Below are positions 12,143-57,067 of a DNA stretch of 64,000 nt, piece after piece. Under the pieces are notes generated by a model that did no database searches, was not told where the DNA came from, and worked only from the letters and a program-made list of their open reading frames with translations. Where the stretch lies: assembly GCA_022562295.1 (NCBI GenBank), contig JADFPO010000006.1, positions 4,477-68,476 of the forward strand. Direction: 5' to 3'. Source of the DNA: Gemmatimonadota bacterium. GTDB lineage: Bacteria > Gemmatimonadota > Gemmatimonadetes > Gemmatimonadales > GWC2-71-9. The position numbers and the translations under genes are program-made. Positions within the stretch are counted from its first letter, which is position 1. Each line of letters opens with the position of its first letter.

Positions 12143-12171
12143 GGCGCGTTGCCCGAAAGAAGTCCGAAGCC

Positions 12172-14046: not shown

Positions 14047-14047
14047 C

Positions 14048-37759: not shown

Positions 37760-38428
37760 TCAACGGGCGCCGCCTGCCCGTTCTTGGTATCCGCCCGCAT
37801 AAACGATGACACACATGACCTCATAGGTTGCGTGCGTGCCGCACGCGACCCCGGCGACCCGAAAATCCTGGTTGAATATGTTGGATCGGTGCCCGCGCTC
37901 AGGGACCCCGTCGTCGACCAATAATTGCATCACGATCCGACGTCCGCTGTCGTCGTCGTAGGTGCCAAACGCGATGTTCTCTCCCACACTGCCGAGCCAG
38001 GTGCCGTAGCGGCTGCTCCGGTCCCACGGTTTGGAACCGTCGGATCCGTCATGGCCGATGGCACCCAGCGGGCCCTGGTCGGACACGTGGTCGGCGGCGG
38101 CGCGCGACAACCCGCGCGAGGTACGAAGAGTGTCGATCCGCGGTACACTCTTCAAGAAATCAGCCGCCTCCTCTACTGCTGTGGCGCCCTCTTGTGTGCG
38201 CAGTGGTATCTCCCCCGGAAACTGCAATAACGTGCCCTCGAAATACTGCAGCCACGCCTCGAGATGGGCGGCATACTCACGCGGGTTCTCTCTCACGAGG
38301 TTGTGTTCGGTGAGGATGCCGGTTTCAAGTCGCGACAGGTACGCAGCCTGGTGGGAGGACGCGACCGACAGGGGGAAGGGGAGGGGAAACAAAGCAAGAA
38401 GGGTTACGAGACAGCGGATTGAGGGCAC
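37760..38428 (-). CDS. CAP (SCP/PR-1-like) domain secreted protein
   Basis: I trimmed the start to GTG 38426-38428, which is preceded by GGAGG. A signal peptide is followed by CAP motifs (HNLVRENP...GHDGSDGS...GENIAFG...GHRSNI). Confidence 0.75.
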   Translation of the reverse strand: MPSIRCLVTLLALFPLPFPLSVASSHQAAYLSRLETGILTEHNLVRENPREYAAHLEAWLQYFEGTLLQFPGEIPLRTQEGATAVEEAADFLKSVPRIDTLRTSRGLSRAAADHVSDQGPLGAIGHDGSDGSKPWDRSSRYGTWLGSVGENIAFGTYDDDSGRRIVMQLLVDDGVPERGHRSNIFNQDFRVAGVACGTHATYEVMCVIVYAGGYQERAGGAR

Positions 38429-38584
38429 GTGACCTCCGTAGGAGCCGAATGATGGCTGCAATGTACGGCGCGGTGCGGACCGTAAGAAGCTTCCCGCACG
38501 TATCGACCTCATAGGCTTGGCCGCCGCAATGTTCTGACCATTACCCCAATTTTTTGGTGACGTACCGCGGTCGAGGCCGCGGTA

Positions 38585-39835
38585 TTGTCGGAGGTGTGCA
38601 GCAAACCGACGCTCGACGCGGCCCGCGATATGCTCGCGCGCGTGTGGGGATATGACGACTTCCGGTGGGCGCAGCGGCGAATCGTCGTCGGTGCTCTCCG
38701 CGGCCGTGATGTCCTCGCCGTATTGCCCACGGGTGGCGGGAAGTCGCTGTGTTTCCAGGTGCCGGCGCTGCTGCTTCCCGGCACCACGATCGTGGTGTCA
38801 CCACTCATCTCCTTGATGCAGGACCAAGTTGCCACGCTGCGACGCAGAGGCGTGGCAGCGGCATACCTGAGCAGCTCGCAACCGTCTCATGAACAACGGA
38901 AGGTGTGGCGCGCGTACGAACAGGGACATCTGAAGCTCCTCTACGTGGCCCCGGAGCGGATGGCGCAACTGGTGGACCGACGGGCTCCACTACCAACGCC
39001 GCTGCTCGCGATCGATGAGGCACACTGTATCAGCGAATGGGGCCACGACTTCCGGCCACATTACCGATCGCTCGGCCGCCATCGTATTGCTCTGGGCAAC
39101 CCACCGACGATTGCACTCACGGCCTCCGCCACACCGGCCACCAGGGCCGACATCGTTCGCATCCTGCGTATGCGGCGAGTCGTCACTGCCGTGAATTCAT
39201 TCGATCGGCCCAACCTTTTCTTCAGCGTACAACGTGCCAAGGACGAGGTGACACGTCTGCGGCAAACGGCTGCCCTCCTCAAGCGGCACAAACAGACTGC
39301 TATTGTCTACGTGCCGACCCGGAACCGGACGGACGGCGTGACCGCCGTGTTGCGAGGTTGGGGAGTTCCCGCGTCACCGTACCACGCCGGACTCCCCTCG
39401 ACGGACCGAACGGCATTGCTCGAAAAATTTCTCGACGGCCGCATCCGTGTCATGGTGGCGACGAACGCTTTTGGGATGGGCATCGACAAGAGCGATGTGC
39501 GGTTCGTGATCCACCTAGGAATTCCCACGCGGCCCGAGGCGTACTACCAGGAGGCAGGCCGGGCCGGGCGCGACGGTGAGCGGGCATGGTGCAAGCTGCT
39601 GTGGTTGAAGGAGGATCTTCAATTGGCCAAGTCGATGGCCGCGGAAAAGCCGTCTACGCGCGTGGGCAACTCGCCGGCCTATCTACGGGCGCGAAAGGCG
39701 GGGCTCGACACGATGCGTCGGTACGTATCCAGTCGCGGGTGCCGCCGAGAAATCCTCCTCGGCTACCTCGGCGAGGAGGAGGTGCGCTGCAGTGGGTGCG
39801 ATCGCTGTGTCAGGGGTGGCGACGGCGACGTTTGA
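38585..39835 (+). CDS. recQ: RecQ-family DNA helicase, short form (helicase core plus Zn subdomain only)
   Basis: PTGGGKSLCFQ, DEAHCISEWGHDFRP, ALTASAT, ATNAFGMGIDK, QEAGRAGRDG and the C-terminal Cys cluster CRREILLGYLGEEEVRCSGCDRC. There is no RQC or HRDC region. The start is uncertain (TTG 38585, GTG 38594 or ATG 38630). Confidence 0.85.
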   Translation: MSEVCSKPTLDAARDMLARVWGYDDFRWAQRRIVVGALRGRDVLAVLPTGGGKSLCFQVPALLLPGTTIVVSPLISLMQDQVATLRRRGVAAAYLSSSQPSHEQRKVWRAYEQGHLKLLYVAPERMAQLVDRRAPLPTPLLAIDEAHCISEWGHDFRPHYRSLGRHRIALGNPPTIALTASATPATRADIVRILRMRRVVTAVNSFDRPNLFFSVQRAKDEVTRLRQTAALLKRHKQTAIVYVPTRNRTDGVTAVLRGWGVPASPYHAGLPSTDRTALLEKFLDGRIRVMVATNAFGMGIDKSDVRFVIHLGIPTRPEAYYQEAGRAGRDGERAWCKLLWLKEDLQLAKSMAAEKPSTRVGNSPAYLRARKAGLDTMRRYVSSRGCRREILLGYLGEEEVRCSGCDRCVRGGDGDV

Positions 39836-39959
39836 GGCTTGGGCGCTTCGATGTGACCGATCCGGTTGTGGAGGAGGTGTTCGCACAAGTTATCGACCAC
39901 GACTGCTCGCTCTACAACCGCTTCGTTACGCGCGTTTCCGTGCCGATCCGTGGCTACGA

Positions 39960-40874
39960 CTACCGTTTCTCGAGGATGCCGTGCTCCGCGAGGAAGTCCA
40001 TGATCGCCGCATATGCGCGGGCTGATTGCTCCGCGCTGAACCCGCCGTGACCACCGCCGGGGATGGTCACGAGCTTGTTCGGCACGCCCGCCTCATCGAG
40101 AGCCTCCTGTAACCGGGTAGCGTGCGAATACGGTACTACGCCATCCGCATCGCCGTGAATCGTGATCGTGGGGGGTAATCCGCGCCGAATGTACGTGAGC
40201 GGTGACACCCGCTGGGCGATGGCCTCCCGATCGGGCATGCTGCCCAGCCACTCCACCGCATAACTCTTGGTGTTGGGCCCATCGATCAGATCGGCTACGT
40301 CGGTGATACCGTACCAATTGACGATGGCCGCCACGCTCACGTCGTCCAGGCCGACGCACTGCCGGTCGAGCCCCGCCGAGGCCGGTAGCATTCCGGTGGT
40401 CAGCGAAAGATGCCCGCCCGCCGAGTGACCCGTCACGATGATTCTGCTGGTGTCGATGTCGTAGTCTTCGGCGTTTTGGAGAACCCAACGCAACGCACAC
40501 CGCGTGTCTTCCACCGCAGCCGGTGCGAGAGAGACGCGCCCCAGCCGGTATTGCACGTTCACTGCGACAAACCCGTTCGCCAGATACGGCATCAGCCGAA
40601 ACGCAGCTCCTTCCTTGCTGCCGCCTACCCATCCACCACCATGAAAGTAGATCACCGTCGGTTGTGGGCCGTCGGCACCCAGCGGCCGGTAGATGTCGAG
40701 TTTGACCTGGAGGTTGTTGGCCGTGAGGTACGGAATATTGGAATAGATCCGATAGTGCCGCGAGAGATCGAGGGCCCATTGTGTGTGCTCGTCGAGCTGG
40801 GCGTGGGCGGGCAGCGCGACCGCGCAGAAGACAACGGTAAGCAGTCCGACGATTGGACTAGCGTGACGTCTCAT
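39960..40874 (-). CDS. secreted alpha/beta hydrolase (esterase/lipase, Abhydrolase_3-like)
   Basis: Signal peptide MRRHASPIVGLLTVVFCAVALPAHA, oxyanion motif FHGGGW and nucleophile elbow GHSAGG. The track ORF extends to an upstream ATG at 40925. Confidence 0.8.
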   Translation of the reverse strand: MRRHASPIVGLLTVVFCAVALPAHAQLDEHTQWALDLSRHYRIYSNIPYLTANNLQVKLDIYRPLGADGPQPTVIYFHGGGWVGGSKEGAAFRLMPYLANGFVAVNVQYRLGRVSLAPAAVEDTRCALRWVLQNAEDYDIDTSRIIVTGHSAGGHLSLTTGMLPASAGLDRQCVGLDDVSVAAIVNWYGITDVADLIDGPNTKSYAVEWLGSMPDREAIAQRVSPLTYIRRGLPPTITIHGDADGVVPYSHATRLQEALDEAGVPNKLVTIPGGGHGGFSAEQSARAYAAIMDFLAEHGILEKR

Positions 40875-40925
40875 GAATTCCTCTCTACAGTGTGGTTCGC
40901 CCAGATGATATCTCGCGTCCGTCAT

Positions 40926-40995
40926 AGGACGATCGAAGACGATCGAGGACGGGGTCGATTCAAGGTCGTCCTGGGTCGTCCCGGTTCGTCTTCAT
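40926..40995. repeat. imperfect ~10-bp periodic / inverted-repeat element related to the sequence upstream of the kinase stubs
   Basis: GACGATCGAAGACGATCGAGGACGGGGTCGATTCAAGGTCGTCCTGGGTCGTCCCGGTTCGTCTTC. It shares the cores GACGATCGAAGACG and GGTCGAYTCRAGGTCGTCC with 42251-42284. Confidence 0.6.
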
Positions 40996-41157
40996 CTCCC
41001 CACCCTCGCCTTCAACTCCTCGAACCAATTCACCACGACCCGTACCGGGATGATTGGATGCCAACTTCAGTTTCCGCGGTGGATGGTCTCCCAACGGCCA
41101 CGACCGACCGACCGTCCGGGATGCGGCATTTGTGACACGGCCTCAGCTGATTGCTGA

Positions 41158-41241
41158 TTACCAGGCCACGTGGCCGAGGTGGCGCTCGATCTTGTAGTGG
41201 TCGGCGAGGGCCGTCGAGAGTTTCCCCGTGATCTCAGACAT
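41158..41241 (-). pseudogene. truncated 5' stub of a Ser/Thr protein kinase gene (copy 1)
   Basis: Minus-strand translation gives MSEITGKLSTALADHYKIERHLG|HVAW*. It matches the kinase N-terminal leader up to the Gly-rich loop and then terminates. Confidence 0.55.
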
Positions 41242-41346
41242 GGATCAAGAGACGGTCGAATACGCTCTGCTGATTGCAGATCGGGACAGCCACTAAATCG
41301 CCAATCTGCCATCGTCCATCCGCAAGCTGAAATTATCACATCCAAA

Positions 41347-41381
41347 CGCTCGTAGCTTGCGGTCGGTAGCTCGTAGCTCAA
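41347..41381. repeat. heptanucleotide tandem array (5 units, RGCTCRT on the + strand)
   Basis: CGCTCGT AGCTTGC GGTCGGT AGCTCGT AGCTCAA. Confidence 0.7.
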
Positions 41382-41420
41382 AAAACGCGGCTCGCCGCAT
41401 TCATGCGGTGGTGCCGAGCC
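41380..41420 (-). terminator. candidate Rho-independent terminator of the mntA-hepT operon
   Basis: The minus strand reads GGCTCGgcaccaCCGCAtgaaTGCGGCGAGCCgcgTTTTTT. It begins 34 nt after the hepT stop. Confidence 0.55.
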
Positions 41421-41453
41421 GGCGTTCAGCGCACGGATACGAAGACAAGGCGG

Positions 41454-41801
41454 CTATAACTCGCGTGCCTCAAGCTGGTCCAATATTTCGTTCACTTGCT
41501 GCTTCAAAATAGGTAGGTCTCGTTCGACGACCTGCCACACAATATCGAGGTTCACACCAAAGTACTCGTGGATCAACTTGTCTCGCATACCCGCAAGACG
41601 GCGCCAAGAAACGTTCTCGTGCGTTTGGCGCAATTCACCCGACACATTCTTGGCTGCTTCGCCCAGAATCTCAAGATTGCGAACGACCGCGTCCTGAGTC
41701 TTCGTGTCACCGAGGAAATGACTTCTTCCCATTGCCGTGTAATCGATGATCCGGTCGATGGCATCCCGCAGATGAGCGAGATACACTCGGTCGTCTTTCA
41801 A
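41454..41801 (-). CDS. hepT: HepT-like (DUF86, HEPN) ribonuclease toxin
   Basis: 115 aa with the Rx4HxY motif (RDKLIHEY). There is an ATGA overlap with mntA. Local GC looks lower by eye. Confidence 0.85.
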   Translation of the reverse strand: MKDDRVYLAHLRDAIDRIIDYTAMGRSHFLGDTKTQDAVVRNLEILGEAAKNVSGELRQTHENVSWRRLAGMRDKLIHEYFGVNLDIVWQVVERDLPILKQQVNEILDQLEAREL

Positions 41802-42088
41802 AGGGGGACGGCCTCAGCAAGGATTTTGTCCCGGAGGTAAGGACTCATGCCCCCTTCCGAAATGACGTCCACACTTTGGCCAAGCAGGTCTTCCAGATCT
41901 TGCCAAAGTCCCACTAGGTCGAGCAGACTACGGTCCGCTTCCATATCGACAAGGAAGTCGACATCGCTTCCCGGTGTAGCATCTTCCCGCGCCATCGATC
42001 CGAACACTCTGACGTTCGCTGCCCCGTGCTGGGCGGCGAGCTGCAAAATGGCTTCACGATTCTCGGAAAGTAGTCCAACGAACTCCAT
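41798..42088 (-). CDS. mntA: MntA-type minimal nucleotidyltransferase antitoxin
   Basis: 96 aa with FGSMAREDATPGSDVDFLV (GSx10DxD pol-beta NTase motif). AGGA lies 7 nt upstream of the ATG. Confidence 0.85.
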   Translation of the reverse strand: MEFVGLLSENREAILQLAAQHGAANVRVFGSMAREDATPGSDVDFLVDMEADRSLLDLVGLWQDLEDLLGQSVDVISEGGMSPYLRDKILAEAVPL

Positions 42089-42103
42089 CAGTATCCTCTG
42101 AAG

Positions 42104-42241
42104 TTACTCTCTAGTAAATATAGACTTTGAAAGATGGCTAAGCGAGGGGAGCCCTGAGAACGCCATGCCACCTTTGCCGAGGTGACGCTCGATCCGGTAG
42201 CGGTCGGCGAGGGCGATGAGTTTCCCCGTGATTTTAGACAT
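42104..42241 (-). pseudogene. truncated 5' stub of a Ser/Thr protein kinase gene (copy 2)
   Basis: Minus-strand translation gives MSKITGKLIALADRYRIERHLGKGGMA|FSGLPSLSHLSKSIFTRE*. Kinase similarity ends inside the Gly-rich loop at about 42161, and the rest runs into the TA promoter region. Confidence 0.6.
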
Positions 42242-42559
42242 GGATTACGAGACGATCGAAGACGCGGTCGACTCGAGGTCGTCCTTGACGAGGGCCATCG
42301 GGGAGCCGGGCGGTCATTTCGCACCTGGGGCTAAGATGGGCCGTCTACGAGGGTTTCGCGAGTAAGGCCGCGGTGGACCACGGACCGAGTGCTGAATCTC
42401 GCGGATTGTCGATCTGGCAGACGACGATGGAGTTCGCAGGCCAACGCGGCAATGCATTGAGAGCGTTCGATTCGCGTACATCCCCAATTCGTCCGCGTTC
42501 ATCAGCAGCTATCCTTGACTTCGCTCGCGGTGGCACCGAGTTGGGTATAGGTTGAGTCC

Positions 42560-43492
42560 ATGCGCTCACATGCTTTGCGCGTGGCCGTGGCACTCCCGTT
42601 TCTCACGAGCTGTTGGGACCAACCTTGGCCCCGCCCCGCTGCCGTGCCGTTCGAGCAGTTCGCCGTCGAGCACCAGGAATGGCGCGATGGGCGCCGCTCA
42701 CGCCTAGTGGCTTCGGGGTCAGGCCCGGTACTCTGGATCGGCCTTTGGGAGCTGCAGCAAGGCGCCACCGCACTCGGCGCGGATTCCACGCTCCCCATCG
42801 TGTTGCCGGCCTCCGATTCCCCCCGCTTGGTCGGAACGCTTCACAGATCGGGACAAGAGGTCCGGTTCGAAACCGCTCCGGGCGGGGGCGCCACGGTGCT
42901 ACTGGCAGACAGCACACCGGTTGATGGATCGTTGACATTGCACAGCGACCGGACGGATTCCGTCACGGTTTTGGTTCTGGGGTCGCTGCGTCTTCGTCTG
43001 CACGGTGAGCGGGGCACCGACCGGCTCTGGCTCCGCGTATGGGATGAGGAACTTCCGGCGCGGGAGACGTTCACACTACCGGACGAGTTTCCGCTGGACA
43101 CCAACTGGTGGGTGGCGGCTCGGTTCCGGGAGTATGCGGAGCCACGCGACTTTCGCGTGGTGGACGTCGTCGGAGGCCCGCAGGAGTTCTCTTCGCCGGG
43201 AGAGCTGATCTTTCGCGTCGGCCAGCAAGAGCACCGCCTTGTGGCTTTCGCCAGCTCGACCAGCACCGATTTCTTCGTGATATTCAGGGACTCCACGGCC
43301 GCTACGACTACTTACGAGTTGGGTCGGTATCTCCACGTGCCCTTCGCAGATGAGGACGGCTGGACTGCAATCGATTTCAACAGAGCGTACAACCCACCCT
43401 GTGTCTTCACCGCCTACTCGACGTGCGCTCTTCCACCGCCCGAGAACCGCCTCGCGCTTGCCGTTCAGGCTGGAGAGAAGCGGGGGCATTGA
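42560..43492 (+). CDS. DUF1684 domain lipoprotein
   Basis: Lipobox MRSHALRVAVALPFLTSC. The C-terminal signature is YELGRYLHVPF...IDFNRAYNPPCVFTAYSTCALPPPENRL. Confidence 0.8.
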   Translation: MRSHALRVAVALPFLTSCWDQPWPRPAAVPFEQFAVEHQEWRDGRRSRLVASGSGPVLWIGLWELQQGATALGADSTLPIVLPASDSPRLVGTLHRSGQEVRFETAPGGGATVLLADSTPVDGSLTLHSDRTDSVTVLVLGSLRLRLHGERGTDRLWLRVWDEELPARETFTLPDEFPLDTNWWVAARFREYAEPRDFRVVDVVGGPQEFSSPGELIFRVGQQEHRLVAFASSTSTDFFVIFRDSTAATTTYELGRYLHVPFADEDGWTAIDFNRAYNPPCVFTAYSTCALPPPENRLALAVQAGEKRGH

Positions 43493-43606
43493 GCGAGCCC
43501 TCTAACAGGAACCGCGCCCGCGCCGCTTCCGGCGGAGCTCGCGGAGCGGCCAAACCGTTCTGAATCAGACCCGGGCTAGCAACCCTGACCGGGTACACCG
43601 GAGGCA

Positions 43607-45025
43607 ATGATGATGAGTGCAACGTCAGTTCGGCGAAGTGCCCTTGCGGGAGCAAGAGATCTTGGAGCCTCGCTCGCGATGTTGGCTATCGCATCCGTCG
43701 TCGGGCTGACCGTTTCGGCCGATGAGGTCGCGGGGCAGGCGACCTTCACCGAGGAGGGTGGTACGCTGCCCGACGGAACGGTCTACTTGATGCGGGTTCC
43801 ATCCAACTGGAACAACACGCTCATCAGGGATCTGGATTATGCCTCCCGCGCCGGCGCAGATCGCTACCTACACATGCTCGAACAGGGTTATGCCGTGGCG
43901 GGCACGCGCCGGCATCGGCTCCGAACATTCCAATACGACCCCGCGCGGGAGATTGCGAATCTCGATACAGTGCTTGACAAATTCCAAGCGCGATTCGGTG
44001 AGCCGACCCGCGTCATCCAGTATGGATGTTCTGGCGGGGGCCACGTGTCGCTCGCCGTGGCGGAGAGTTTCTCCGACCGAGTTGACGGTGTGATCGCTCT
44101 GGCCGCACATACTCCCGTGTGGCTCATGAACACGTTCTTGGACGGATGGTTTTCCCTCAAGGCGCTGATCGCTCCCGACCTGGCGATCGTGGACATACCC
44201 GTCGATCAGTCCGGTGGCAGGAGCCACGGCCTAGAGGGCCCACTCACTGTCGCGTGGACGCGAGCCATAAACGCGGCACAACAGACCCGCGAGGGTCGTG
44301 CGCGTATTGCGCTGGCCTTTACGATCGGACAGTGGCCGGCTTGGGTGAACCGACTAACACCGCAGCCGAGTCTGGACGACGTCGTTGCGCTTCAGCACAG
44401 CATGTATCACACCGTCCTCCAGAACACTCGAAGCCCCGGTGGAGAAGCGCGAATCTTGTTCGAGAGTGCGGCAAACGGGCAACAGTTGTCGTGGAACACC
44501 GGCCTGGACTACGGCGAGTTGTTCGAGAACGGCAACGAGTTCTTCAAGCGGGCGGTTTACGAGCTATACCAGGAGGCTGGAGTCGATCTCGAGGCGGATA
44601 TCGCGCGAATCAACACGTTTCCCCGTATTGAGGCGGCTCCCCACGCTCTGAATTACTGGAAAGCGCCGGGGCGCAACGTGACGGGCGATCCGAAGGTACC
44701 GCTTCTTCGCATGCACGAGATCGGCGATTATCAGGTTCCCGTCAGCCTGGTCCAGGGCTATGACGATCAGATCCGTGCCAACGGTAAAGGGGATCTGTAC
44801 CGCACCGCATTTGTGGATGCGCCCGGGCACTGCGGATTCACCGCCGCGGAGAGCGCGGCTGCGATTGAGACCATGATGCGTCGGTTGGACACCGGCGAAT
44901 GGGGGAGCACCGACCCGGAGCAGCTCAATGATCTGGCAGCGTCGTTGGACGACAGCCCCGCGCGCTTCGTCCACCTCGGTGACTACGCGCAGGCCAAGTA
45001 CAACCGCGTGTGGGTGCCGAAGTAG
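43607..45025 (+). CDS. secreted alpha/beta hydrolase with a tannase/feruloyl-esterase-like CS-D-HC signature (putative)
   Basis: Signal peptide, nucleophile elbow GCSGGG, and a C-terminal PGHCGF. A Cys next to the Ser and a Cys next to the His are the hallmark of the tannase/MHETase family. Assigned by motif only. Confidence 0.5.
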   Translation: MMMSATSVRRSALAGARDLGASLAMLAIASVVGLTVSADEVAGQATFTEEGGTLPDGTVYLMRVPSNWNNTLIRDLDYASRAGADRYLHMLEQGYAVAGTRRHRLRTFQYDPAREIANLDTVLDKFQARFGEPTRVIQYGCSGGGHVSLAVAESFSDRVDGVIALAAHTPVWLMNTFLDGWFSLKALIAPDLAIVDIPVDQSGGRSHGLEGPLTVAWTRAINAAQQTREGRARIALAFTIGQWPAWVNRLTPQPSLDDVVALQHSMYHTVLQNTRSPGGEARILFESAANGQQLSWNTGLDYGELFENGNEFFKRAVYELYQEAGVDLEADIARINTFPRIEAAPHALNYWKAPGRNVTGDPKVPLLRMHEIGDYQVPVSLVQGYDDQIRANGKGDLYRTAFVDAPGHCGFTAAESAAAIETMMRRLDTGEWGSTDPEQLNDLAASLDDSPARFVHLGDYAQAKYNRVWVPK

Positions 45026-45055
45026 TCGAGCGGAGGGCGGTCAAGGACGGACGTC

Positions 45056-46237
45056 CTAGTCTTCCTCGACCGTAACTTCGTGGTGCTCCCCAACCCGAGG
45101 CGCCCGTCTGACCGCCAGCCGCTCACCGTCTACGATGGCAAAGCCACCTGGGACGGTGCCTTCCCGCTCGGTATCGAGGGAAATCTTCCGCCAGAAGTCG
45201 CGCGCCTGCAGCTGGGGATCCGCGAGAAGGTCTGCGACTGTTGAGACCGGGTACCCGAGCATACCTCGGGACGTTACTCCGTCGTAGAACTCTCGCTTGG
45301 TGAGTGTCGCGAGAAACTCGCCGATCGGTCGCTCGAGGCGGTCGACGTCATCCTGGGTGAGCGGTGGCACCTGAAAGTTTTCCCAGTCCATCCGTAGCAG
45401 AGACTCGGGCGCCATGCCCGCCTCGTGCATCCAGCTCACCAACTGGCGATTGGTCTCGCGGCCGGCCGCGCCTCCGTACACGATGAAATTGATCCAGCCG
45501 TCGCGACACGGCCACAGCGCCCGCATGCGCGCACCCGTGAGAGTGCGGCCGGTGACGAACGTCCCGGCACGCCCCGGGTTCTCACGATTCAAGTCCCAGA
45601 ACGCGGGAGCGTGAGAGACCGCAGCCATCACCGCAACCTGGGCGGACACGTCCACGTGCTGTCCCCGCCCGGTCACGGCGCGCGCGGCGAGTGCCGAGAG
45701 CGCACCCATCGCCGCTTCGAGCCCCGCAAACATCGGTGATTGTGGCACGCTCACCCGCATGGGTTCCCCGTCGGCTTCACCCGCCAGCGACATGGCACCG
45801 CTCAACGCCATGATTTCTAGATCGGAGGCGCGGAAGTCCCGGTATGGACCGTCCTGTCCGAATGGAGTAACCGACACCATGATCAATCCCGGATTGAACC
45901 GGCTCAAATCGACGTATCCAAGTCCCCATTTCTCGAGGGTGCCGGGCGCGTAGCTCTCGAGCACGAAGTCGGCTTTGGCCGCAAGCCGCCGGAACAGTGC
46001 CTGGCCTCGTGCCTGCGACACATCGATCACCACGCTCTTCTTGTTTGCGTTGCCCGTCAACCAAAACACGCTTTGGGGACCGACCGCCGTCTCTACCGTT
46101 GGCGGCGTGCGACGCGCGGGATCGCCTCCGGGCGGTTCGATCTTGACGACGTCCGCACCGAGGTCGGCTAGAACTCGGCCCGCCATGAACCCGAGCGGCC
46201 CCGTGAGGTCGAGTACCCGGTAAGGGGCGAGGAGCAC
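45056..46237 (-). CDS. family III CoA-transferase (CaiB/BaiF type)
   Basis: 393 aa reading YRVLDLTGPLGFMAGRVLADLGADVVKIEPPGGDP. Confidence 0.85.
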   Translation of the reverse strand: MLLAPYRVLDLTGPLGFMAGRVLADLGADVVKIEPPGGDPARRTPPTVETAVGPQSVFWLTGNANKKSVVIDVSQARGQALFRRLAAKADFVLESYAPGTLEKWGLGYVDLSRFNPGLIMVSVTPFGQDGPYRDFRASDLEIMALSGAMSLAGEADGEPMRVSVPQSPMFAGLEAAMGALSALAARAVTGRGQHVDVSAQVAVMAAVSHAPAFWDLNRENPGRAGTFVTGRTLTGARMRALWPCRDGWINFIVYGGAAGRETNRQLVSWMHEAGMAPESLLRMDWENFQVPPLTQDDVDRLERPIGEFLATLTKREFYDGVTSRGMLGYPVSTVADLLADPQLQARDFWRKISLDTEREGTVPGGFAIVDGERLAVRRAPRVGEHHEVTVEED

Positions 46238-46243
46238 GTAACT

Positions 46244-47821
46244 TCAGCGTCCCGTCCGCGCGAGCACTTCAACCCAACCGCGCATGCGCTGCTTGGCCCG
46301 GGCTATTTCGTCGTCGGAAAAGAACTTGCGAGGATCGACGCGGTCCACCGGGTAGACGGGACGGTGAAAGTCTTGTTCGTAACCGTAGGGGACAGTCGCG
46401 TCGATTCCCATGCCGCCTTCGAAACGCGTGTTCGACGCCGTCCACGGTTTGTCGCCCGCGCTCATCCGCTCCTCGGGCTGGAAGGTCTGGCCCACTCCCC
46501 CGGGGAGAGGATTCAGGATGTCGGTGTGGGGATTCACTCGCGTCGTGAGACACCACATGATGTCATCCATGCTGTAGATGTCCACGTCCTCGCTGACGGC
46601 GATCGCCAGCCGCATCCCCTGATTGCATGCGAGGGTCGCGGCCAGGAAGTTTCGTTGCCAACCTTCTTCGATCCGATTCCGTTTCTTCACCTGAATGATG
46701 CAGCCGCCCCAATCGGTCATGCAGAACGGGATGTTGACGTCCTGAACGATTCCGGGTTGCAGCCGTTCACACAGCTCGAGGATGGCCGACTCGCGCAACG
46801 TCGTGTCGATGTTGTTGCAGTCGGCCATGTGGACGCCGAGTAGATACACGAGTGGTTTCGTTTCGCGTTTCCGCATAGTGATGCCGGTGACGTGGAACGT
46901 CGGCGCCTTGTATGCCTTACCCATGTAACCGGCCCACTCCGGATGGAAGAAATATTTCCCCTGAATGTCGGCCTCCTCGGCCTCTTTCGTTTCATAACGC
47001 TTGTCGCGCGGGTGGAGGTATCCTTCCAGCACGTACTCCGACTCGGCGATGGCGTACGCGTCGACAGTTCGCGCTTTCACGATCGAAACCGGCGATCCCT
47101 GCATGGCCCCAGCGACTCCGATCTCATCACAACCCTTGGGCAGCACGACGTAGTCGAACCCGCCACCGGCAACCATGGTGCAGGCGGGCGGCACGCCGAA
47201 GCACATGGTTAGCGGGATCGGTTGGTCGTCGCGGTAGTGCGCTGTGATGATCTGCCACATGTGCGATCCCGGGGACGCCTGCAACGTCCCCACGTTGCCC
47301 CAGCGGAAGTTCATGCGGTTGTAGCCAATGTGACTCCCTCCCCAAAAGTACGGACCCACCACGCAACTGATCCCGCTGCCGATGGTGAGTTCGGTCTCGA
47401 GTTCTGTGTGTCTGATTGCGGTGATGTACTTGTTGACATCCAGGTCATCCGTGATCACTTCCTCCTGGCAGGGTGCATCGCTTTGCGCGACCTCTACGGG
47501 CTTTATCGGGTTCACCATGGAGTGCGCGATCTTTCGGGTCCGATCCTGCGCGTCGATGAAGCCGAACAGCTTGTCGATGACCGCAAAGTCGGCGAGCAGG
47601 TTCGTGACGGCGCGGACATTCGGTCGCCCCTTCACGTTGTTGAACAGGATCACGGGACCGCCGTCGAGATGCTTTTGGATTCCGGTAATCTCGAGGTCAG
47701 GATCGACCTCGACGTCGGTGGACAAGACGTCGCCCTGGGACGCGAGCCAGGCGAGCGCCGCGCGCAACGAAGTGATGTCCCGGTCGGTGTCGGTCGTTGG
47801 CGTCGTCGCGGTGGTGGCCAT
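46244..47821 (-). CDS. UbiD-family (prFMN-dependent) decarboxylase
   Basis: 525 aa with a UbiD-like N-terminus (LRAALAWLASQGDVLSTDVEVDPDLEITGIQKHLDGGPVILFNNVKG) and matching length. Confidence 0.85.
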   Translation of the reverse strand: MATTATTPTTDTDRDITSLRAALAWLASQGDVLSTDVEVDPDLEITGIQKHLDGGPVILFNNVKGRPNVRAVTNLLADFAVIDKLFGFIDAQDRTRKIAHSMVNPIKPVEVAQSDAPCQEEVITDDLDVNKYITAIRHTELETELTIGSGISCVVGPYFWGGSHIGYNRMNFRWGNVGTLQASPGSHMWQIITAHYRDDQPIPLTMCFGVPPACTMVAGGGFDYVVLPKGCDEIGVAGAMQGSPVSIVKARTVDAYAIAESEYVLEGYLHPRDKRYETKEAEEADIQGKYFFHPEWAGYMGKAYKAPTFHVTGITMRKRETKPLVYLLGVHMADCNNIDTTLRESAILELCERLQPGIVQDVNIPFCMTDWGGCIIQVKKRNRIEEGWQRNFLAATLACNQGMRLAIAVSEDVDIYSMDDIMWCLTTRVNPHTDILNPLPGGVGQTFQPEERMSAGDKPWTASNTRFEGGMGIDATVPYGYEQDFHRPVYPVDRVDPRKFFSDDEIARAKQRMRGWVEVLARTGR

Positions 47822-47894
47822 CTGTTGCTCCTTTAGGATTGACGTTACGGGGCTGGTGTCGTGCGCGGCAGCGGGAAGGGACGTCGCCGCCGGT

Positions 47895-49115
47895 TTACGA
47901 GAATGCCTCGGCTGCCTCTGCCTGCTTCAACTCCTGAGTGCTCACGCCGAGCCAATCGCGAAAAATGTGATCGTTGTGTTGGCCGAGGCATGGAGCGGGA
48001 CTCCGCACGCGCCCCGGGGAATCGTGCAGTTGATACGCAACCATTCGGTAGTGATGGCGGCCGATCTCCGGATGGACTTGTTCCTGCCAGATGTTTCGTG
48101 CCGCCAGTTGTGGGTCGGAGAACAAGTCGGCGATCGAGTTCACCACGGCTGCGTGAACACCCGCCCGCTGAAGCCGAAGCATCAACACAGTTCCATCTTC
48201 GCCGAGTACCTGTGCTGCGATGGCGTCGTTGAGATCGGACTCGTGTCGCCGTCGTTGGGAGGCAGTGCCGAAGCGCTGATCCGTTTGCCAATCGGGCCGG
48301 CTCACTGCGTCACAGAACCGCCCCCACTCGGCGTCGTCCCAGCAGCTGATCACGCACCACCTCTCGTCGCGCACGCGATAACATCCGTGCGGAATGGCGA
48401 GCGTGTCGTGATTGCCGCAGCGTTGCTCCACGCCTCCGTTCACGGCGTGGTCGAGTACCGTCCCACCGAGGAACTGCAATCCGGTCTCGTATTGTGAGAG
48501 ATCGATGAACGCGCCTTGGTTCGTGCGCCGCTGCCGATCGAGTGCGGCGAGAACCGCAGCCCCGCCGAACACCACGGCTACGAAGTCGATGTACGGTCCG
48601 TACAGCAGTTGTGGCGGACCATCGGTCGTTCCCGTAAGGTGCGTGAACCCGCACAGCGACGATAGTTGCGAACCGAAACCCGGATGCGTGGCATACCGAC
48701 CGGTCTGCCCCAGGTTGCTGGTGCTGAGCATGACGAGCGAGGGGTTTACCCGACGCAGTCGATCATAACCCAGTCCGAGTCTGTCGATGACACCGGGCCG
48801 CATGTTTTCGATCACGATCTGAGCCTTCTCAACCAGCCGGCAGGCGAGAGCGACACCGGCCGGGTTCTTGAGATTCAAGGTCACGCCGAATTTCGAGTCG
48901 TTGAAGATAGCGAAACACCCAGATCGGTTGACGCCTACCCGATCAGACGGGTACGGCGGATATTGCAACCGGAACCCGTCCGGCCGCGTTTGGGATTCGA
49001 CGTGGATCACCCGCGCGCCGAAGTTGGCGAGATATTTCCCAATCGCCGGTCCCGCCGCGTAACCGCCGAACTCGACAACGGTGACCCCCCCAAGCGCGTC
49101 CATCCCGTCCGCCAT
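47895..49115 (-). CDS. family III CoA-transferase (second paralogue)
   Basis: 406 aa reading VTVVEFGGYAAGPAIGKYLANFGARVIHVES. Confidence 0.85.
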   Translation of the reverse strand: MADGMDALGGVTVVEFGGYAAGPAIGKYLANFGARVIHVESQTRPDGFRLQYPPYPSDRVGVNRSGCFAIFNDSKFGVTLNLKNPAGVALACRLVEKAQIVIENMRPGVIDRLGLGYDRLRRVNPSLVMLSTSNLGQTGRYATHPGFGSQLSSLCGFTHLTGTTDGPPQLLYGPYIDFVAVVFGGAAVLAALDRQRRTNQGAFIDLSQYETGLQFLGGTVLDHAVNGGVEQRCGNHDTLAIPHGCYRVRDERWCVISCWDDAEWGRFCDAVSRPDWQTDQRFGTASQRRRHESDLNDAIAAQVLGEDGTVLMLRLQRAGVHAAVVNSIADLFSDPQLAARNIWQEQVHPEIGRHHYRMVAYQLHDSPGRVRSPAPCLGQHNDHIFRDWLGVSTQELKQAEAAEAFS

Positions 49116-49121
49116 GTCCCC

Positions 49122-49313
49122 CTAATCCGCCAATGGCCCGGCCGTTGGTGCTACCTCGTCCGCTGCTGCCTCCGTGCTCACCCCACCCGCGGCCATCCGG
49201 CCGTTCCATCGAGGCATGAGGACCGGGTGGATCCCCAACCGGTTCGACACGCGTCCAACGGTGTTGCCCACGAGATGCTCGATTACGAGCTTGCGACCTT
49301 CCTTGAGCGTCAC
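49122..49313 (-). CDS. small hypothetical protein (63 aa)
   Basis: A GTG at 49311-49313 overlaps the upstream stop (GTGA), which is the coupling pattern seen throughout this window. It ends 6 nt before the CoA-transferase ATG. I do not recognise a family. Confidence 0.35.
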   Translation of the reverse strand: MTLKEGRKLVIEHLVGNTVGRVSNRLGIHPVLMPRWNGRMAAGGVSTEAAADEVAPTAGPLAD

Positions 49314-49795
49314 GCCAACATCTCCTCGAATATCGAAGTGGCGCACGCAAGCTTGGTGGCCAGGTTCGGGTCACGGTAGGTCATGCCACTCGTAATGACA
49401 GGCTCACCCTCCCGCTCTACATCCACATGGTCCGCCAACACCTGCTCGACTCGAAAGTTGAGCAACGCGTTGTGTGGAGCCAACTTCATGCTCGGGAGCA
49501 GTTCCTCCACGGTTCCCTTGAGGTAGTAGGCAATGCCTGCGTCCACCACGACGATGGTGAGCCGACCGGTTCGCCGCATGTTGCCGGTCGTGCGGCTGTC
49601 GGCGGAGATGGCGAGTCGGAGGTTTTGCGCATCACGCGCGACGATCTCGAAATGACTCAGCATCGCCGGATGCGGCCACCCATCTTCCCCCTCCGTGATG
49701 ATGGGCACGACGTTCTGCGCATAGCGTTCGAGGGTCTTCGCGCTGAAACGCCGAACGAGGTCGGGTGGTAATTCTGAGCCGACGAGCCGCGTCAT
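49310..49795 (-). CDS. split-barrel (pyridoxamine 5'-phosphate oxidase-like) protein (putative)
   Basis: 161 aa. The pattern VPIITEGEDGWPHPAMLSHFEI...GRLTIVVVD resembles PNPOx/flavin-reductase-like barrels. This is a weak assignment made by eye. Confidence 0.4.
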   Translation of the reverse strand: MTRLVGSELPPDLVRRFSAKTLERYAQNVVPIITEGEDGWPHPAMLSHFEIVARDAQNLRLAISADSRTTGNMRRTGRLTIVVVDAGIAYYLKGTVEELLPSMKLAPHNALLNFRVEQVLADHVDVEREGEPVITSGMTYRDPNLATKLACATSIFEEMLA

Positions 49796-49806
49796 CCGCT
49801 AGTACG

Positions 49807-49861
49807 CGTTGTCACAAATACGACCACAGATGGCAACGAGCAGCGTCATGTGGTGACAACG
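49807..49861. promoter_or_regulatory. nested inverted repeat upstream of the catabolic operon (candidate operator or 5' structure)
   Basis: CGTTGTCAC-N8-CCACA-N20-TGTGGTGACAACG. It lies 12-66 nt upstream of the ATG at 49795. Confidence 0.35.
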
Positions 49862-49920
49862 GGACACGACAAAGCGACGACGCTCCAATCACGTCGGGCG
49901 CCTGGCAGCTGGAATCCCAA

Positions 49921-49948
49921 AGCTCATAGCTCACGGCTCATAGCTCAA
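49921..49948. repeat. heptanucleotide tandem array (4 units)
   Basis: AGCTCAT AGCTCAC GGCTCAT AGCTCAA. Confidence 0.7.
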
Positions 49949-49998
49949 AGTCCATTCACAATATCCCGTGTGTCCTGTCCAAAACAAGAAGCGTTCAT

Positions 49999-51909
49999 CT
50001 ATCCTGAACTCGACATCTGCGTACGCGCGCGCACCGACTGCCGACTGACCGCAAGAACTCCCAGCACTACGCCGGCAACATCGGTGCCCCATCCCGGAAA
50101 AATCAAACAGAGGCCCGAGGCGAGCATGAGCATACGTTCCTGCCACACGAGTGACACCTGCATGAAACCCTCTAGCGCCGACGCCAACAGGATCACGCCG
50201 GCGGCTGAAGTAAGTAGAGCCAGCAGAATCGACAGCGGAGAGCCCACGAGCAACAATTCGGGTCGATACACAAAGAAATAGGGAATCACGAAAGCCACGA
50301 GCCCGAGCCGAACGGCCTGCGCGGCCACACGGCCCGGATTCTCCTGCGCGATGCTAGCCGCAGCGTAAGCGGCCACCGCTACCGGCGGCGTGATCGCCGA
50401 GAGAACGGCGAAGTACAAGATAAAAAGATGAGCGCTGAGTTCGGGCAATCCGAGCATAGCCAGGGGCGGCCCGGCCAGCACAGCGGTGAGCACGTACGCC
50501 GAAGGAACCGGCATCCCCATGCCCAACAACACGCACACGATCATGGTCGCGAACAGGGCCAAGAACATCGAACCGCCAGCGTACGCGAAGATGAGGCTGC
50601 TGACCTTTCCTCCGAGCCCGGTAACCGCGATTGCTCCGACGACCAGACCGGCCGCAGCACAAGCTACCGTGACCAGCATCGAGCGCCGGGCCCCCAGTTC
50701 CAAGACCTGGAGTATGCGCTTCAGCCCCATGCGAGTATCGGGCCGAATCCAGCTCACGGCGACCGTGAGAACCAGCGCCGCTCCGGCGGCGGTGATCGGA
50801 GTGGATCCTCCCGCCAGGAGGAGTACCAGGGTCAACAGCGGGACAAGGTGATGTGCTCCCTCGCGCAATACCGCCCAGAAGGAGTGCGCGACGGCTGGGA
50901 CCCGATCGATACCCAACCGCCCTGCCCCCCAGTGGAGCTGCATGAAAATGCTGAGATAGAACAGCATGGCGGGAAACAGCGCTGCAAGGCAGATCTCGAG
51001 GTAGGGAATCCCGGTCAGCTCCACCATCAGGAAAGCGGCGGACCCCATCACGGGAGGCAGCAATCCACCGCCGGTGGATGCAACCGCCTCCACCGCCGCC
51101 GCGACGTCCCCCCTCAATCCTGCCCGCTTCATCATCGGGATCGTGAAGAGACCCGTAGTGACCACGTTGGAGGTGGGGCTCCCAGTGATCGTGCCATATA
51201 GTGCGCTGGATGCCACCGCTACCTTGGCCGGTCCTCCTCGGGTGCGCCCGGCAAGCGAACTGGCCAGCCGAAAGATGAAATCGCCAGCTCCGGACACCTC
51301 GAGCGCGGTGCCGAACAACACGAAGACGTATACGTACGTGGCGGCCACGGCGATGGGCGCGCTGAATAGGCCGTTGGTGGTGAAGATGATCTGATCGATC
51401 ACGTCCTCGAGTGTCAGCAATCGGTGATAGAACAGCCCCGTCATCAAATGACCGGCCAACGCGTACACGAGAAATGCCATGATGACGGCAAACAAGAGCC
51501 ACCCGATGATCCGCCGAGTCGCATCGAGGACCGCGAACAACAAGACGAGCCCGCACACCATGCCGGCCAAGGGCAGCAATTCTACCTGGGGCCAGCGCGC
51601 TCTGATCCATTCGAATCGGGCCAGAAAAAACATACCTGCCGCGAGGGACGATACGACCCAGAACCAGGACAGGATACGGGACATGCGTTGCCGAGGTCCA
51701 CGCTGCGACCGATCCGCGGCGGCAGTGAGAAAGACCAGGCACAGCACCATGCTGAGAAACAGCGCGCGGTGGAGCAGGGGGTCGAGCGTTGCTACGAAGA
51801 TGGCCCAGAGCTGGAAAGTCGACAGGCCAATGCACAGCCATCGGACGGAGGTGGCTAGGCCTCCGGTCGGCGACGCTTCACTGCCCGCCGTTTCCGTCGC
51901 AGCGGTCAC
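49999..51909 (-). CDS. TRAP transporter fused permease (TAXI-associated DctQM-type)
   Basis: 636 aa and highly hydrophobic along its whole length. The GTG start overlaps the stop of the TAXI binding-protein gene (GTGA at 51906-51909). Confidence 0.85.
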   Translation of the reverse strand: MTAATETAGSEASPTGGLATSVRWLCIGLSTFQLWAIFVATLDPLLHRALFLSMVLCLVFLTAAADRSQRGPRQRMSRILSWFWVVSSLAAGMFFLARFEWIRARWPQVELLPLAGMVCGLVLLFAVLDATRRIIGWLLFAVIMAFLVYALAGHLMTGLFYHRLLTLEDVIDQIIFTTNGLFSAPIAVAATYVYVFVLFGTALEVSGAGDFIFRLASSLAGRTRGGPAKVAVASSALYGTITGSPTSNVVTTGLFTIPMMKRAGLRGDVAAAVEAVASTGGGLLPPVMGSAAFLMVELTGIPYLEICLAALFPAMLFYLSIFMQLHWGAGRLGIDRVPAVAHSFWAVLREGAHHLVPLLTLVLLLAGGSTPITAAGAALVLTVAVSWIRPDTRMGLKRILQVLELGARRSMLVTVACAAAGLVVGAIAVTGLGGKVSSLIFAYAGGSMFLALFATMIVCVLLGMGMPVPSAYVLTAVLAGPPLAMLGLPELSAHLFILYFAVLSAITPPVAVAAYAAASIAQENPGRVAAQAVRLGLVAFVIPYFFVYRPELLLVGSPLSILLALLTSAAGVILLASALEGFMQVSLVWQERMLMLASGLCLIFPGWGTDVAGVVLGVLAVSRQSVRARTQMSSSG

Positions 51910-52910
51910 CGGACACCGATCTCCCGGTAGAAGAGCGCCGCCCCTTCATGTAGAGGCACCCCGCCGACCTCGGACATTGTCGCGGGTGTTAGTGCCCTCA
52001 ACGAGCCGTGTGCGCGCCTCAGCCGGGCGAGATTGTCGTGCAGGGTTCGGGTGATTTGGTAAATCTGTTCTTCGGGAACGAAGCGGTGAGTTATCAGGAT
52101 CACGCGCCCCGCAAACGTTCGGACGTCGTGATCCAAGAAATCGTACGCGGCGCGCGGTATTGTGGTCGTGTCGGTGCCGAGACGCTCATTGGCGAGCGCA
52201 ATGACCTCGTCCGAAAGGGACAGAATGTCGAGGTCAATCGTACGGCTCGCATCCACGGCGTGTCGCGACGGCACTTGCACCGTCGTGCCAATGGCGTCGA
52301 TCCGTCCGTTTTTCATCATCTCATAGGATTCGTTGAAGGGGAAAAACAGAATGTCGCCCCCATACTCTCTGATGTCGTCGAACTGCAGCCCATAGGCATC
52401 AAACACGGTGCGGGTCGCAAGTTCCATCAGCGAGCCCCGGGTATTCACACTCACTCGTACCGGCGAACGACGCCGCAGAATGTCCGCTATGTCGGTGAGA
52501 CCAGACCGGCGGTCGACGATGAAGTGAAATGGCGCGTCGCCGTAGATCAACATGACGGCGCGGACGTCCGGTTGTGGCGCATCGAACGGCGAGGTCCCGC
52601 GCAGAGCTGCGAGGGCCAGGGAGGAGTGTACCAGACCCAGCTCCACCTTCTGTTGCTGCACGAGCACGGCGTTGGCGCCGTCCTGGCCGGGCTCGAGGGT
52701 GAACGAGGAAGAGGCAATCCCGCGCCGCAGCTCGTCGGTGATCGCTTCACCGATTGCGGACCACGCCCCGCCGGGAGATGCGCCCACGAGCGTCATCCGC
52801 CATGATTTATCGGCAGCCTCGCAGCCACTGAGGGCTGCTAGCCATGTGCTAATGAATACGATCTTCCGGCGGTGCGCGGTCGAACGCCGCCGTCGCGGTC
52901 GCGACATCAT
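51906..52910 (-). CDS. TAXI-family TRAP solute-binding lipoprotein
   Basis: I trimmed the start to MMSRPRRRRSTAHRRKIVFISTWLAALSGC (lipobox). The TAXI-like body ends ...GVPLHEGAALFYREIGV. Confidence 0.8.
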   Translation of the reverse strand: MMSRPRRRRSTAHRRKIVFISTWLAALSGCEAADKSWRMTLVGASPGGAWSAIGEAITDELRRGIASSSFTLEPGQDGANAVLVQQQKVELGLVHSSLALAALRGTSPFDAPQPDVRAVMLIYGDAPFHFIVDRRSGLTDIADILRRRSPVRVSVNTRGSLMELATRTVFDAYGLQFDDIREYGGDILFFPFNESYEMMKNGRIDAIGTTVQVPSRHAVDASRTIDLDILSLSDEVIALANERLGTDTTTIPRAAYDFLDHDVRTFAGRVILITHRFVPEEQIYQITRTLHDNLARLRRAHGSLRALTPATMSEVGGVPLHEGAALFYREIGVR

Positions 52911-53129
52911 ATCAACTTTTGGGTCAAGGTACCGCAGCATACTAGCATTGGCTAGGTGCACTGGGAAGAAGACCTGGCCCAGACCGGATTGCAGCGAGAC
53001 CGGAGTGAGTGTTGACATCATGCCGCCGCCCCATAGAAAGCATTTTCAATCGGCCGTCCAAAGTAGAGCTGGGTGAGTGGACCGTCCAGGGAGCCTGATG
53101 TTGTAGCCCACCCGCTGCCTACGGTCGTG

Positions 53130-53234
53130 TGCCGGTGCCACCGAGACATTCTCCTAGGCTACCTCGGCGAGGAGGTGGTGCGATGCGGTGGGTGTGATCG
53201 CTGCCGTAGGAGCGGCGACGGCGACGGTGTTTGA
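53130..53234 (+). pseudogene. orphan 3' fragment of a recQ-like gene
   Basis: It reads in frame as CRCHRDILLGYLGEEVVRCGGCDRCRRSGDGDGV*. It is nucleotide-similar to recQ 39741-39835, and the similarity continues past the stop codon. Confidence 0.65.
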
Positions 53235-53355
53235 GGCCCGGGCGTTCCGGGGCGTCCGGTGGCTCGCTCGTCAGCTCAACACCAACATCCCGGCGGCCTG
53301 GCCACCGCTCGTCCCACCGCATATGCTTGGCCGACACTGCCACCGGAGACCGCCC

Positions 53356-55242: not shown

Positions 55243-55256
55243 AGCGGCAACCAGCT

Positions 55257-55305
55257 ACCCCGACACCTGCCACCTATCCCCTGACACCTATCCCCTATCC
55301 CCTAC
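55257..55305. repeat. heptanucleotide tandem array (~7 units, CMCCTAT-type)
   Basis: ACCCCGA CACCTGC CACCTAT CCCCTGA CACCTAT CCCCTAT CCCCTAC. It fills the gap between two convergent stop codons. Confidence 0.7.
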
Positions 55306-56168: not shown

Positions 56169-56234
56169 GCGGGCAGATGGGCAGATGGGCAGTTGGGCAG
56201 GCGGGCAAACGGACAGGCGGGCAGGCGGGCAGGA
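56163..56234. repeat. octanucleotide tandem array (9 units, GGGCAGNN)
   Basis: GGGCACGC GGGCAGAT GGGCAGAT GGGCAGTT GGGCAGGC GGGCAAAC GGACAGGC GGGCAGGC GGGCAGGA. Confidence 0.75.
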
Positions 56235-56261
56235 GGACGAAGCCGGTCCAAGACGGAGTTT

Positions 56262-57063: not shown

Positions 57064-57067
57064 CGAT

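Follow-up and report, generated by a model that had tools for sequence, protein, structure and literature searches.

A displaced 3′ end of recQ borders a mosaic 13.3-kb accessory segment in a Gemmatimonadota genome

We examined a 13.3-kb segment of accessory genes directly downstream of a recQ helicase gene in a Gemmatimonadota bacterium (GenBank assembly GCA_022562295.1, contig JADFPO010000006.1, positions 4,477 to 68,476 of the forward strand). This stretch of 64,000 nucleotides is referred to as the window, and coordinates are those of the window unless another contig is named. The segment is bracketed by two same-orientation copies of the recQ 3′ end, namely the live end of the gene (copy A) and a displaced end (copy B) that precedes a SoxC-like gene. 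Our results indicate that the segment is a fairly ordinary scar of genome plasticity at a hot spot and not a self-mobile or discrete integrase-driven island; the locus adds one more case to a familiar class of genome scars and does not represent a novel type of system. As for its origin, we favor the explanation, to which we give a probability of about one half, that copy B is what remains of a second recQ allele, whose dead 3′ end was stranded by recombination between two diverged versions of the locus. Three features define the repeat pair:

38585-39835, + strand: intact gene for a short RecQ-family helicase of 416 aa (Pfam DEAD, Helicase_C and RecQ_Zn_bind; Gemmatimonadota orthologues are ~400-440 aa)
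39735-39860, + strand: repeat copy A, comprising the final ~34 codons of live recQ with the stop codon and ~25 nt beyond (read and aligned)
53131-53258, + strand: repeat copy B, a non-functional displaced recQ 3′ end of 34 codons with the stop codon and ~25 nt beyond (aligned)

The similarity between the two copies is far above chance. A repeat search paired 39735-39830 with 53131-53226 in the same orientation, over 96 nt at 84% identity and with a spacing of 13,396 nt, BLAST of the pairing returned E = 3e-27, and the local alignment score of 74 compares with 9.9 ± 1.5 for shuffled targets (maximum 18). Global alignment of 39735-39861 with 53131-53260 matched at 103 of 130 columns (79%, or 81% with gapped columns excluded) and had a single indel of 3 nt (GGT), which bears out an earlier, first-pass annotation of this DNA that had described a same-orientation repeat about four-fifths identical with one 3-nt indel. 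The longest exact block common to both copies is 19 nt (GGCTACCTCGGCGAGGAGG). Past the stop codon the copies still agree at 17/26 nt, and the duplication is thus one of DNA, as that annotation had also argued. Copy B lies ~100 nt upstream of the SoxC-like start codon and has a sharp left edge at 53131, to the left of which we found no residual recQ similarity (score 11 vs 9.8 ± 1.3 for shuffles); tblastn at this position recovered RecQ residues 386-410 only. A consensus scan found no terminator after recQ.

As the first reading had it, copy B remains open in frame to its stop codon. Its translation is CRCHRDILLGYLGEEVVRCGGCDRCRRSGDGDGV followed by the stop, so that the B-type tail terminates in CDRCRRSGDGDGV. 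The four zinc-finger cysteines and the stop codon are kept, whereas the otherwise invariant R of the CRR motif is replaced by H. By itself, copy B is functionless. Because the RecQ residues following CDRC are different in each orthologue examined, tails A and B are specifically related to each other. RecQ in this clade is a short form ending immediately behind the zinc-binding motif; winged-helix and HRDC domains are apparently missing from it, and its C-terminal tail is different in every lineage.

The segment carries no sign of mobility genes. No integrase or transposase was detected by Pfam in the large open reading frames (ORFs) of window 0.4-28.7 kb and 34.9-56.3 kb, in agreement with the first pass, which had seen none. 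The ORFs at ~28.9-34.8 kb and 56.3-63.6 kb, outside the Pfam scan, are collinear with ordinary genes of a relative, L001. Every large ORF of 39.8-53.2 kb falls into another Pfam family or, for one 472-aa protein, is hydrolase-like by reading; we considered this protein as an integrase and rejected it, since it reads as a secreted hydrolase-like protein. Excisionase, phage and conjugation genes were also absent from the 13.3-kb segment, and no tRNA or Rfam RNA-family attachment (att) site was present in the window. The guanine-cytosine (GC) content and tetranucleotide composition of 39.8-53.2 kb were the same as those of the flanks (tetranucleotide distance 0.010-0.0125 within the segment vs a window mean of 0.0121 ± 0.0014), with only a toxin-antitoxin patch dipping in GC (0.59). 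We therefore rejected the compositional foreignness for which the first-pass annotation had suggested looking.

Relatives were represented by contigs (labelled L001 and so on) that were compared by synteny around recQ. In L001 (RecQ 80% identical), which is collinear with window 28.8-61.8 kb, positions 11185-11529 replace window 39775-53404, leaving ~340 bp between recQ and the SoxC-like gene. The 13.3-kb segment is therefore accessory, as had been proposed; in the more distant relatives L111-L114, nfeD stands directly 3′ of recQ and the genes of 54646-58255 are absent. L001 is without nearly all of the 13.3 kb, but its site is not a cleanly empty one: directly after its recQ stop is a minus-strand kinase stub, ending in VVENFFEELKEKVGR and a stop codon, that is homologous to window 40989-41038 inside the segment. 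Since L001 keeps this C-terminal stub, some of the DNA between the copies, at the least, did not arrive as cargo but is old sequence from downstream of recQ.

Across eight lineages (RecQ at least 66% identical), seven different genes were found directly 3′ of recQ: a hydrolase gene (window), the kinase stub and then SoxC (L001), an amidohydrolase (L002), FG-GAP (L003), a 364-aa protein (L109), nfeD (L111-L114) and Big_2 (L202). Having seven neighbors in eight lineages, the slot between recQ and nfeD is a hot spot. The run 5′ of recQ is conserved (AtuA, AtuA-ferredoxin, ECH and a Zn-ribbon protein), as is nfeD/floA downstream. Descriptions of integration hot spots that lie between conserved core genes do not usually include surviving pieces of either flanking core gene. 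The recQ locus resembles them in its conserved flanks (recQ; nfeD/floA) and in a content that differs in nearly every lineage, and is unlike them in that the recQ tail and kinase stubs are retained here, so that the joints can be read. A contig scan with universal RecQ motifs returned 80 loci of distant RecQ (38-53% identity) from other phyla or of paralogues, which were useless for synteny.

The 5′ side of recQ is also variable (window 37760-38512 vs L001 8982-9752 vs L003 2513-9890). It holds a CAP-family secreted protein in the window and L003 and a cytochrome c in L001, and L003 has an extra 7.5 kb there with DUF5916, a Tricorn-like protein and an HTH protein. With variable slots on both sides, recQ is an isolated conserved gene.

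An independent genome, L002 (RecQ 76% identical), has the same architecture as the window with other cargo. Here the last 351 nt of recQ and 24 nt past its stop recur 3.4 kb downstream with 92.8% identity, and the two copies enclose two unrelated genes and no integrase. Separately, L002 contains a recent segmental duplication (2903-7237, 10178-10460) whose Fe-dependent repressor region is 98.4% identical between copies.

Among close strains, the segment varies piecemeal. The near-identical strains L004/L097 and L085 (97.6% identical; L004 and L085 are from JGI 3300011112 and a sister sample) share its left junction. A further strain, L089 (SMUY01074965; 97-98% identical), has recQ tail A, the hydrolase gene and a DUF1684 gene, and is without 40975-42249 and 43547-53228. 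The joint for the first of these absences falls in a 36-nt direct repeat (40937-40972 and 42250-42285), and the second stretch is replaced by a different 1.4 kb with kinase fragments and a 271-aa ORF. L089 rejoins the window at 53229, where only GTTTGA and the post-stop stretch remain from copy B. The DUF1684 gene is 92% identical between the window and L089, compared with 97-98% for the flanks. L103 (SRR12157859; 96% identical across the gene for a TAXI receptor) leaves the window at 52979/52980 and has the TAXI operon in another context. The right junction, running from upstream of TAXI into copy B (52980-53228), is present in the window only, L103 and L089 both diverging there. The TAXI operon is found in L104-L106 as well, with a homologue of the 472-aa protein (79% protein identity) beside the TAXI gene. 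The 472-aa gene and the TAXI/TRAP/PNPOx/CoA-transferase/UbiD operon are circularly permuted between the window (43607-53021) and L104 (4154-11441): in L104-L106 the homologue, of 474 aa, is divergent from the TAXI gene, whereas in the window the 472-aa gene and the operon's far end converge. Together, these comparisons demonstrate that the segment is a mosaic and is not inherited as a unit. A string in L103 1-208 that resembles a tRNA T-arm and acceptor end (CCGGTTCGAATCCGGCCCCCCC) was not recognized as a tRNA by ARAGORN or Rfam.

The first-pass annotation had left two readings side by side, an integrated island or the scar of recombination; the scar fits best, and a single integrated island does not agree with the missing integrase, the piecemeal inheritance and the native composition. 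Recombination between chromosomal versions of the locus is preferred over a self-mobile element because there is no recombinase, because native composition goes together with piecemeal variation, and because L001-native sequence lies inside. The left part of the segment resembles the native recQ-downstream DNA of L001, a likeness to be expected of donor DNA from the recQ locus of another chromosome. Differences between the repeat copies number 4, 3 and 8 at the three codon positions in the window alone and 11, 3 and 13 in the L002 repeat; for the two combined (15, 6 and 21) the chi-square p is 0.017. This sparing of second positions suggests that the copies diverged while both were coding, in different genomes.

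The favored sequence of events would begin before the sampled strains split, when two diverged versions of the locus would have recombined. DNA from a related Gemmatimonadota bacterium would have relied on homology for pairing at one end, either inside recQ or toward SoxC, and at the other end would have been joined illegitimately at recQ codon ~383 (homology-facilitated illegitimate recombination); alternatively, a circular fragment that carried a recQ end could produce the same structure in one step through a single crossover. The product would keep a whole recQ (copy A), then the insert, and then the other allele's last 34 codons and ~25 nt before the SoxC-like gene, with homology stopping ~25 nt past the stop, where the two versions would cease to be alike. 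The interior is a mosaic whose remodelling by the same kind of event went on; the insertions and deletions seen among strains have their ends in short repeats.

Homology-facilitated illegitimate recombination was put forward to explain orphaned 3′ ends of genes downstream of type VI secretion system (T6SS) effector and Rhs loci (PMC5361080). The T6SS effector-immunity arrays of Vibrio cholerae and the Rhs and contact-dependent inhibition (CDI) loci share with the window a conserved upstream anchor gene followed directly by variable DNA, an earlier 3′ end pushed back as a same-orientation fragment without an integrase (PMC5361080), and a sharp non-homologous 5′ edge of the fragment, which in the window is at 53131. 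They are unlike it in several respects. The anchor here is a housekeeping-type helicase gene where theirs is a polymorphic toxin, the cargo consists of genes for metabolism and transport together with a toxin-antitoxin pair instead of toxin tips and immunity genes, and the window has one displaced end and no array, with the mechanism inferred from structure only.

Several observations weigh against recombination between two recQ alleles. The incoming DNA could equally be the cargo side or the SoxC side. No live RecQ gene with a B-type tail was found among orthologues or in a metagenome scan for the tail motif, nor did a chimeric 53-aa query yield a candidate. In the metagenome scan, three of the 18 matches fit the window beyond the motif (L085, L089 and L097, all of the window's own lineage); a further match, in L098, proved on checking to be a chance match and not recQ. 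RecQ itself has no detectable mosaic break (C-part/N-part identity ratio 0.91 vs 0.94 ± 0.05 for all pairs), and the codon-position signal is not significant in the window taken by itself (p = 0.25). No second contig confirms the joint of the TAXI upstream region with copy B. Finally, the displaced recQ ends of L002 and L089 share one and the same starting nucleotide, which points to site-specific recombination at least there and by analogy could apply to the window.

In L089, recQ homology starts abruptly at codon ~295 (GGCATCGACAAG, encoding GIDK), a junction equivalent to window 39468. At L089 7244-7561, numbered on that contig and running opposite to the window, recQ abuts foreign DNA with a terminase-small-subunit-like ORF (phrog_606, E = 3.7e-5) and two tandem copies of a 12-mer (GTGTGCGAACTT). 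In L002 (14716-14719) the displaced end begins at the same nucleotide, with ATTA before it in both genomes; the sequences to the left of the shared junction are otherwise unrelated, without residual homology. Two independent breakpoints at one nucleotide suggest site-specific recombination, and the GIDK codons may be a phage attachment site within recQ. In the window, copy B has its start at a different place, codon ~383, and there was no signal of a mosaic break at codon 295 of the window RecQ. When IMG/VR was searched with the RecQ C-terminus for phages bearing a recQ-like attP, the matches were all generic viral RecQ genes (at most 45% identity, full length), a relative of the L089 terminase-like protein (L195) had no recQ fragment, and searches with junction patterns returned no matches or chance matches only.

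These junctions lend some weight to the main rival account, possible if tentative, in which the two copies would be the attL and attR sites of an integrase-driven element of some age, whether prophage or integrative island, that entered the recQ 3′ end carrying a replacement recQ end, later lost its integrase and mobility genes and had its interior overwritten. An intact gene, a same-orientation C-terminal pseudogene and homology reaching slightly past the stop fit such an origin, recQ is an insertion target in the clade given the phage-like DNA at codon ~295 in L089 and the L002 end that starts at the same nucleotide after ATTA, and the cargo of L002 demonstrates that repeat-flanked segments without an integrase exist at recQ. 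What speaks against it is the absence of any integrase, excisionase, phage or conjugation gene from 13.3 kb of native composition that is not inherited as a unit and that holds a kinase stub native to recQ-downstream DNA in L001. Moreover, copy B does not begin at the GIDK site, the sequences left of the shared L002/L089 junction are unrelated, IMG/VR yielded no phage bearing a recQ-like attP, and homology extends on both sides of the 19-nt identical block with no clear core, although the ~19% divergence would blur any core.

A precedent for an att-flanked origin is e14 in the icd gene of E. coli, where the icdC pseudogene stands at the far junction and recombination between the copies removes the segment (PMC13626634). 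Like the recQ segment, e14 and phage 21 in icd occupy the 3′ end of a protein-coding gene, bring a replacement end that keeps the gene intact and leave a slightly diverged pseudogene. Unlike it, e14 encodes its own integrase, is a recognizable prophage and is lost or kept as a unit, whereas the recQ segment has no recombinase or phage gene, is native in composition and varies piecemeal in content.

Integrase-less att-flanked remnants are known as cis-mobilisable elements (CIMEs) of the Streptococcus thermophilus integrative and conjugative elements (ICEs). The recQ segment is similar in being bracketed by direct repeats of a gene's 3′ end without a recombinase of its own, and it differs in that no cognate integrase or autonomous element for the codon ~383 site was found, the clade's only phage-like junction lying at codon ~295. 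Had the segment arisen as an att-flanked element, what remains of it could possibly be mobilised in trans by a related integrase. An extension of this idea, which we consider unlikely, is that recQ in this clade serves as a dedicated docking gene for elements bringing a replacement recQ end, with one site at GIDK (L002, L089) and a second in the zinc-finger codons (window). The 13.3 kb would then be an integrase-less att-flanked island moved in trans by a temperate phage integrase like the one implied for L089.

We hold it to be quite unlikely that copy B originated within the genome, either by a tandem duplication from the recQ 3′ end that was then mostly deleted or as a decayed second recQ paralogue beside the SoxC-like gene. 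Tails A and B are closer to each other than to the tail of any orthologue, H for R in the CRR motif of copy B fits relaxed constraint, and illegitimate tandem-duplication joints do occur at the locus: in L002 a further, internal piece of recQ lies upstream at 5819-6102, shares 98.6% identity with the resident gene and is fused to the beginning of the second Fe-repressor copy, which makes a tandem-duplication joint inside recQ. Against such an origin, a 13-kb duplication with a near-total and neatly placed deletion would be required. The ~19% divergence and the third-position excess fit coding divergence better than neutral decay, weakly so given a very short repeat. The decayed paralogue, which the first-pass annotation had entertained, also found no counterpart among relatives, as tblastn with RecQ proteins recovered a full-length second recQ at the distal position in none of them (L001, L003, L089, L109-L114) and the only relative with extra recQ pieces, L002, had fragments exclusively. 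Very unlikely is an assembly chimera, in which two strain haplotypes, one with recQ directly beside the SoxC-like gene, were mis-joined in metagenome assembly: 52980-53228 is indeed present in the window only, with L103 diverging at 52979/52980 and L089 at 53228/53229, but a mis-join needs a k-mer common to the TAXI upstream region and recQ codon 383 and none was seen, L089 independently has GTTTGA and the post-stop remnant before its SoxC-like gene with no adjacent recQ, and L002 has the same architecture in an unrelated assembly.

The locus offers a readable record, with its joints preserved, of accessory genes accumulating beside a core gene. Gemmatimonadota have few cultured members and almost no studied mobile genetics, and the preserved scars here (the recQ tail, the kinase stubs and a flanked toxin-antitoxin cassette) suggest that much gene gain proceeds via recombination of chromosomal haplotypes and not via classical mobile elements. 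The exact recQ breakpoint in the GIDK codons, common to two genomes and in one of them beside phage DNA, is maybe the more interesting lead and may mark a new phage attachment site.

The genes between and beside the copies correspond to the list given in the first-pass annotation, by Pfam, by reading of the 472-aa sequence and by reading of the kinase stubs, which were identified from the sequence itself:

39960-40925, - strand: secreted alpha/beta hydrolase, BD-FAE type (Pfam BD-FAE E = 1e-55)
40937-40972, no strand assigned: 36-nt motif with a second direct copy at 42250-42285 (89% identity; repeat search)
40993-41054, - strand: C-terminal stub of a Ser/Thr-kinase/PD40-type gene, ending in VVVNWFEELKARVGR and a stop (translation; homologue after the L001 recQ)
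41161-41265, - strand: kinase N-terminal stub 1, MSEITGKLSTALADHYKIERHLGHVAW and a stop, with upstream sequence (direct-repeat partner of 42176-42265)
41454-41801 (HepT) and 41798-42088 (MntA), - strand: HepT/MntA toxin-antitoxin pair (Pfam HepT-like, NTP_transf_2)
42104-42285, - strand: kinase N-terminal stub 2, beginning MSKITGKLIALADRYRIERHLGKGGMA, with upstream sequence and the second copy of the 36-nt motif (sequence reading)
42560-43492, + strand: DUF1684 protein gene (Pfam)
43607-45025, + strand: gene for the 472-aa secreted hydrolase-like protein, no family match (sequence reading)
45056-53021, - strand: operon of CoA-transferase III, UbiD, CoA-transferase III, PNPOx-like protein, fused TRAP permease and TAXI receptor (Pfam), made up of the next six rows
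45056-46237, - strand: CoA-transferase III (Pfam)
46244-47821, - strand: UbiD (Pfam)
47895-49115, - strand: second CoA-transferase III (Pfam)
49310-49795, - strand: PNPOx-like protein (Pfam)
49999-51909, - strand: fused TRAP permease (Pfam)
51906 to ~52910, - strand: TAXI receptor (Pfam; the ORF extends to 53021, homologues are 323-334 aa)
53357-54642, + strand: SoxC-like molybdopterin oxidoreductase (Pfam Oxidored_molyb, Mo-co_dimer)
54646-58255, no strand assigned: rest of the variable slot, with cytochrome c, NmrA-like protein, LytTR response regulator and histidine kinase (Pfam; collinear with L001)

The BD-FAE hydrolase gene also stands directly 3′ of recQ in the strain contigs L004, L085 and L089, and the conserved nfeD/floA region runs from ~58.2 kb onward. 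HepT and MntA (Pfam HepT-like E = 9e-29; NTP_transf_2 E = 7e-13) overlap by 4 nt, and by the gene criterion of adjacency and overlap they are classed as a putative type VII toxin-antitoxin pair; the patch that holds them is lower in GC (0.586-0.589). This cassette is flanked by direct repeats, 88-90% identical, of the 5′ end of a Ser/Thr-kinase gene and its upstream sequence, and thereby repeats the recQ pattern at a smaller scale. Both direct-repeat pairs could still promote deletion or excision of the DNA between them. An exact-sequence look-up of the window TAXI protein found it not on record, because the mechanical ORF start lies too far upstream.

The mechanical ORF of the SoxC-like gene begins at a GTG at 53188, inside copy B. 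Its true start is probably the ATG at 53357, which is followed by a twin-arginine signal (RRSLLAGAAGAAGAA); the corresponding ORF in L089 starts MSKRDTPD... Annotation could thus wrongly extend the SoxC-like gene from 53188 over the recQ relic, and the recQ-like stretch is a pseudogene fragment. Elsewhere in the window, the sole clear compositional outlier was 11000-16000 (GC 0.59, tetranucleotide distance 0.0155-0.0163 vs a mean of 0.0121), which holds lexA, a 564-aa HEAT-repeat protein and a 491-aa HD-domain protein.

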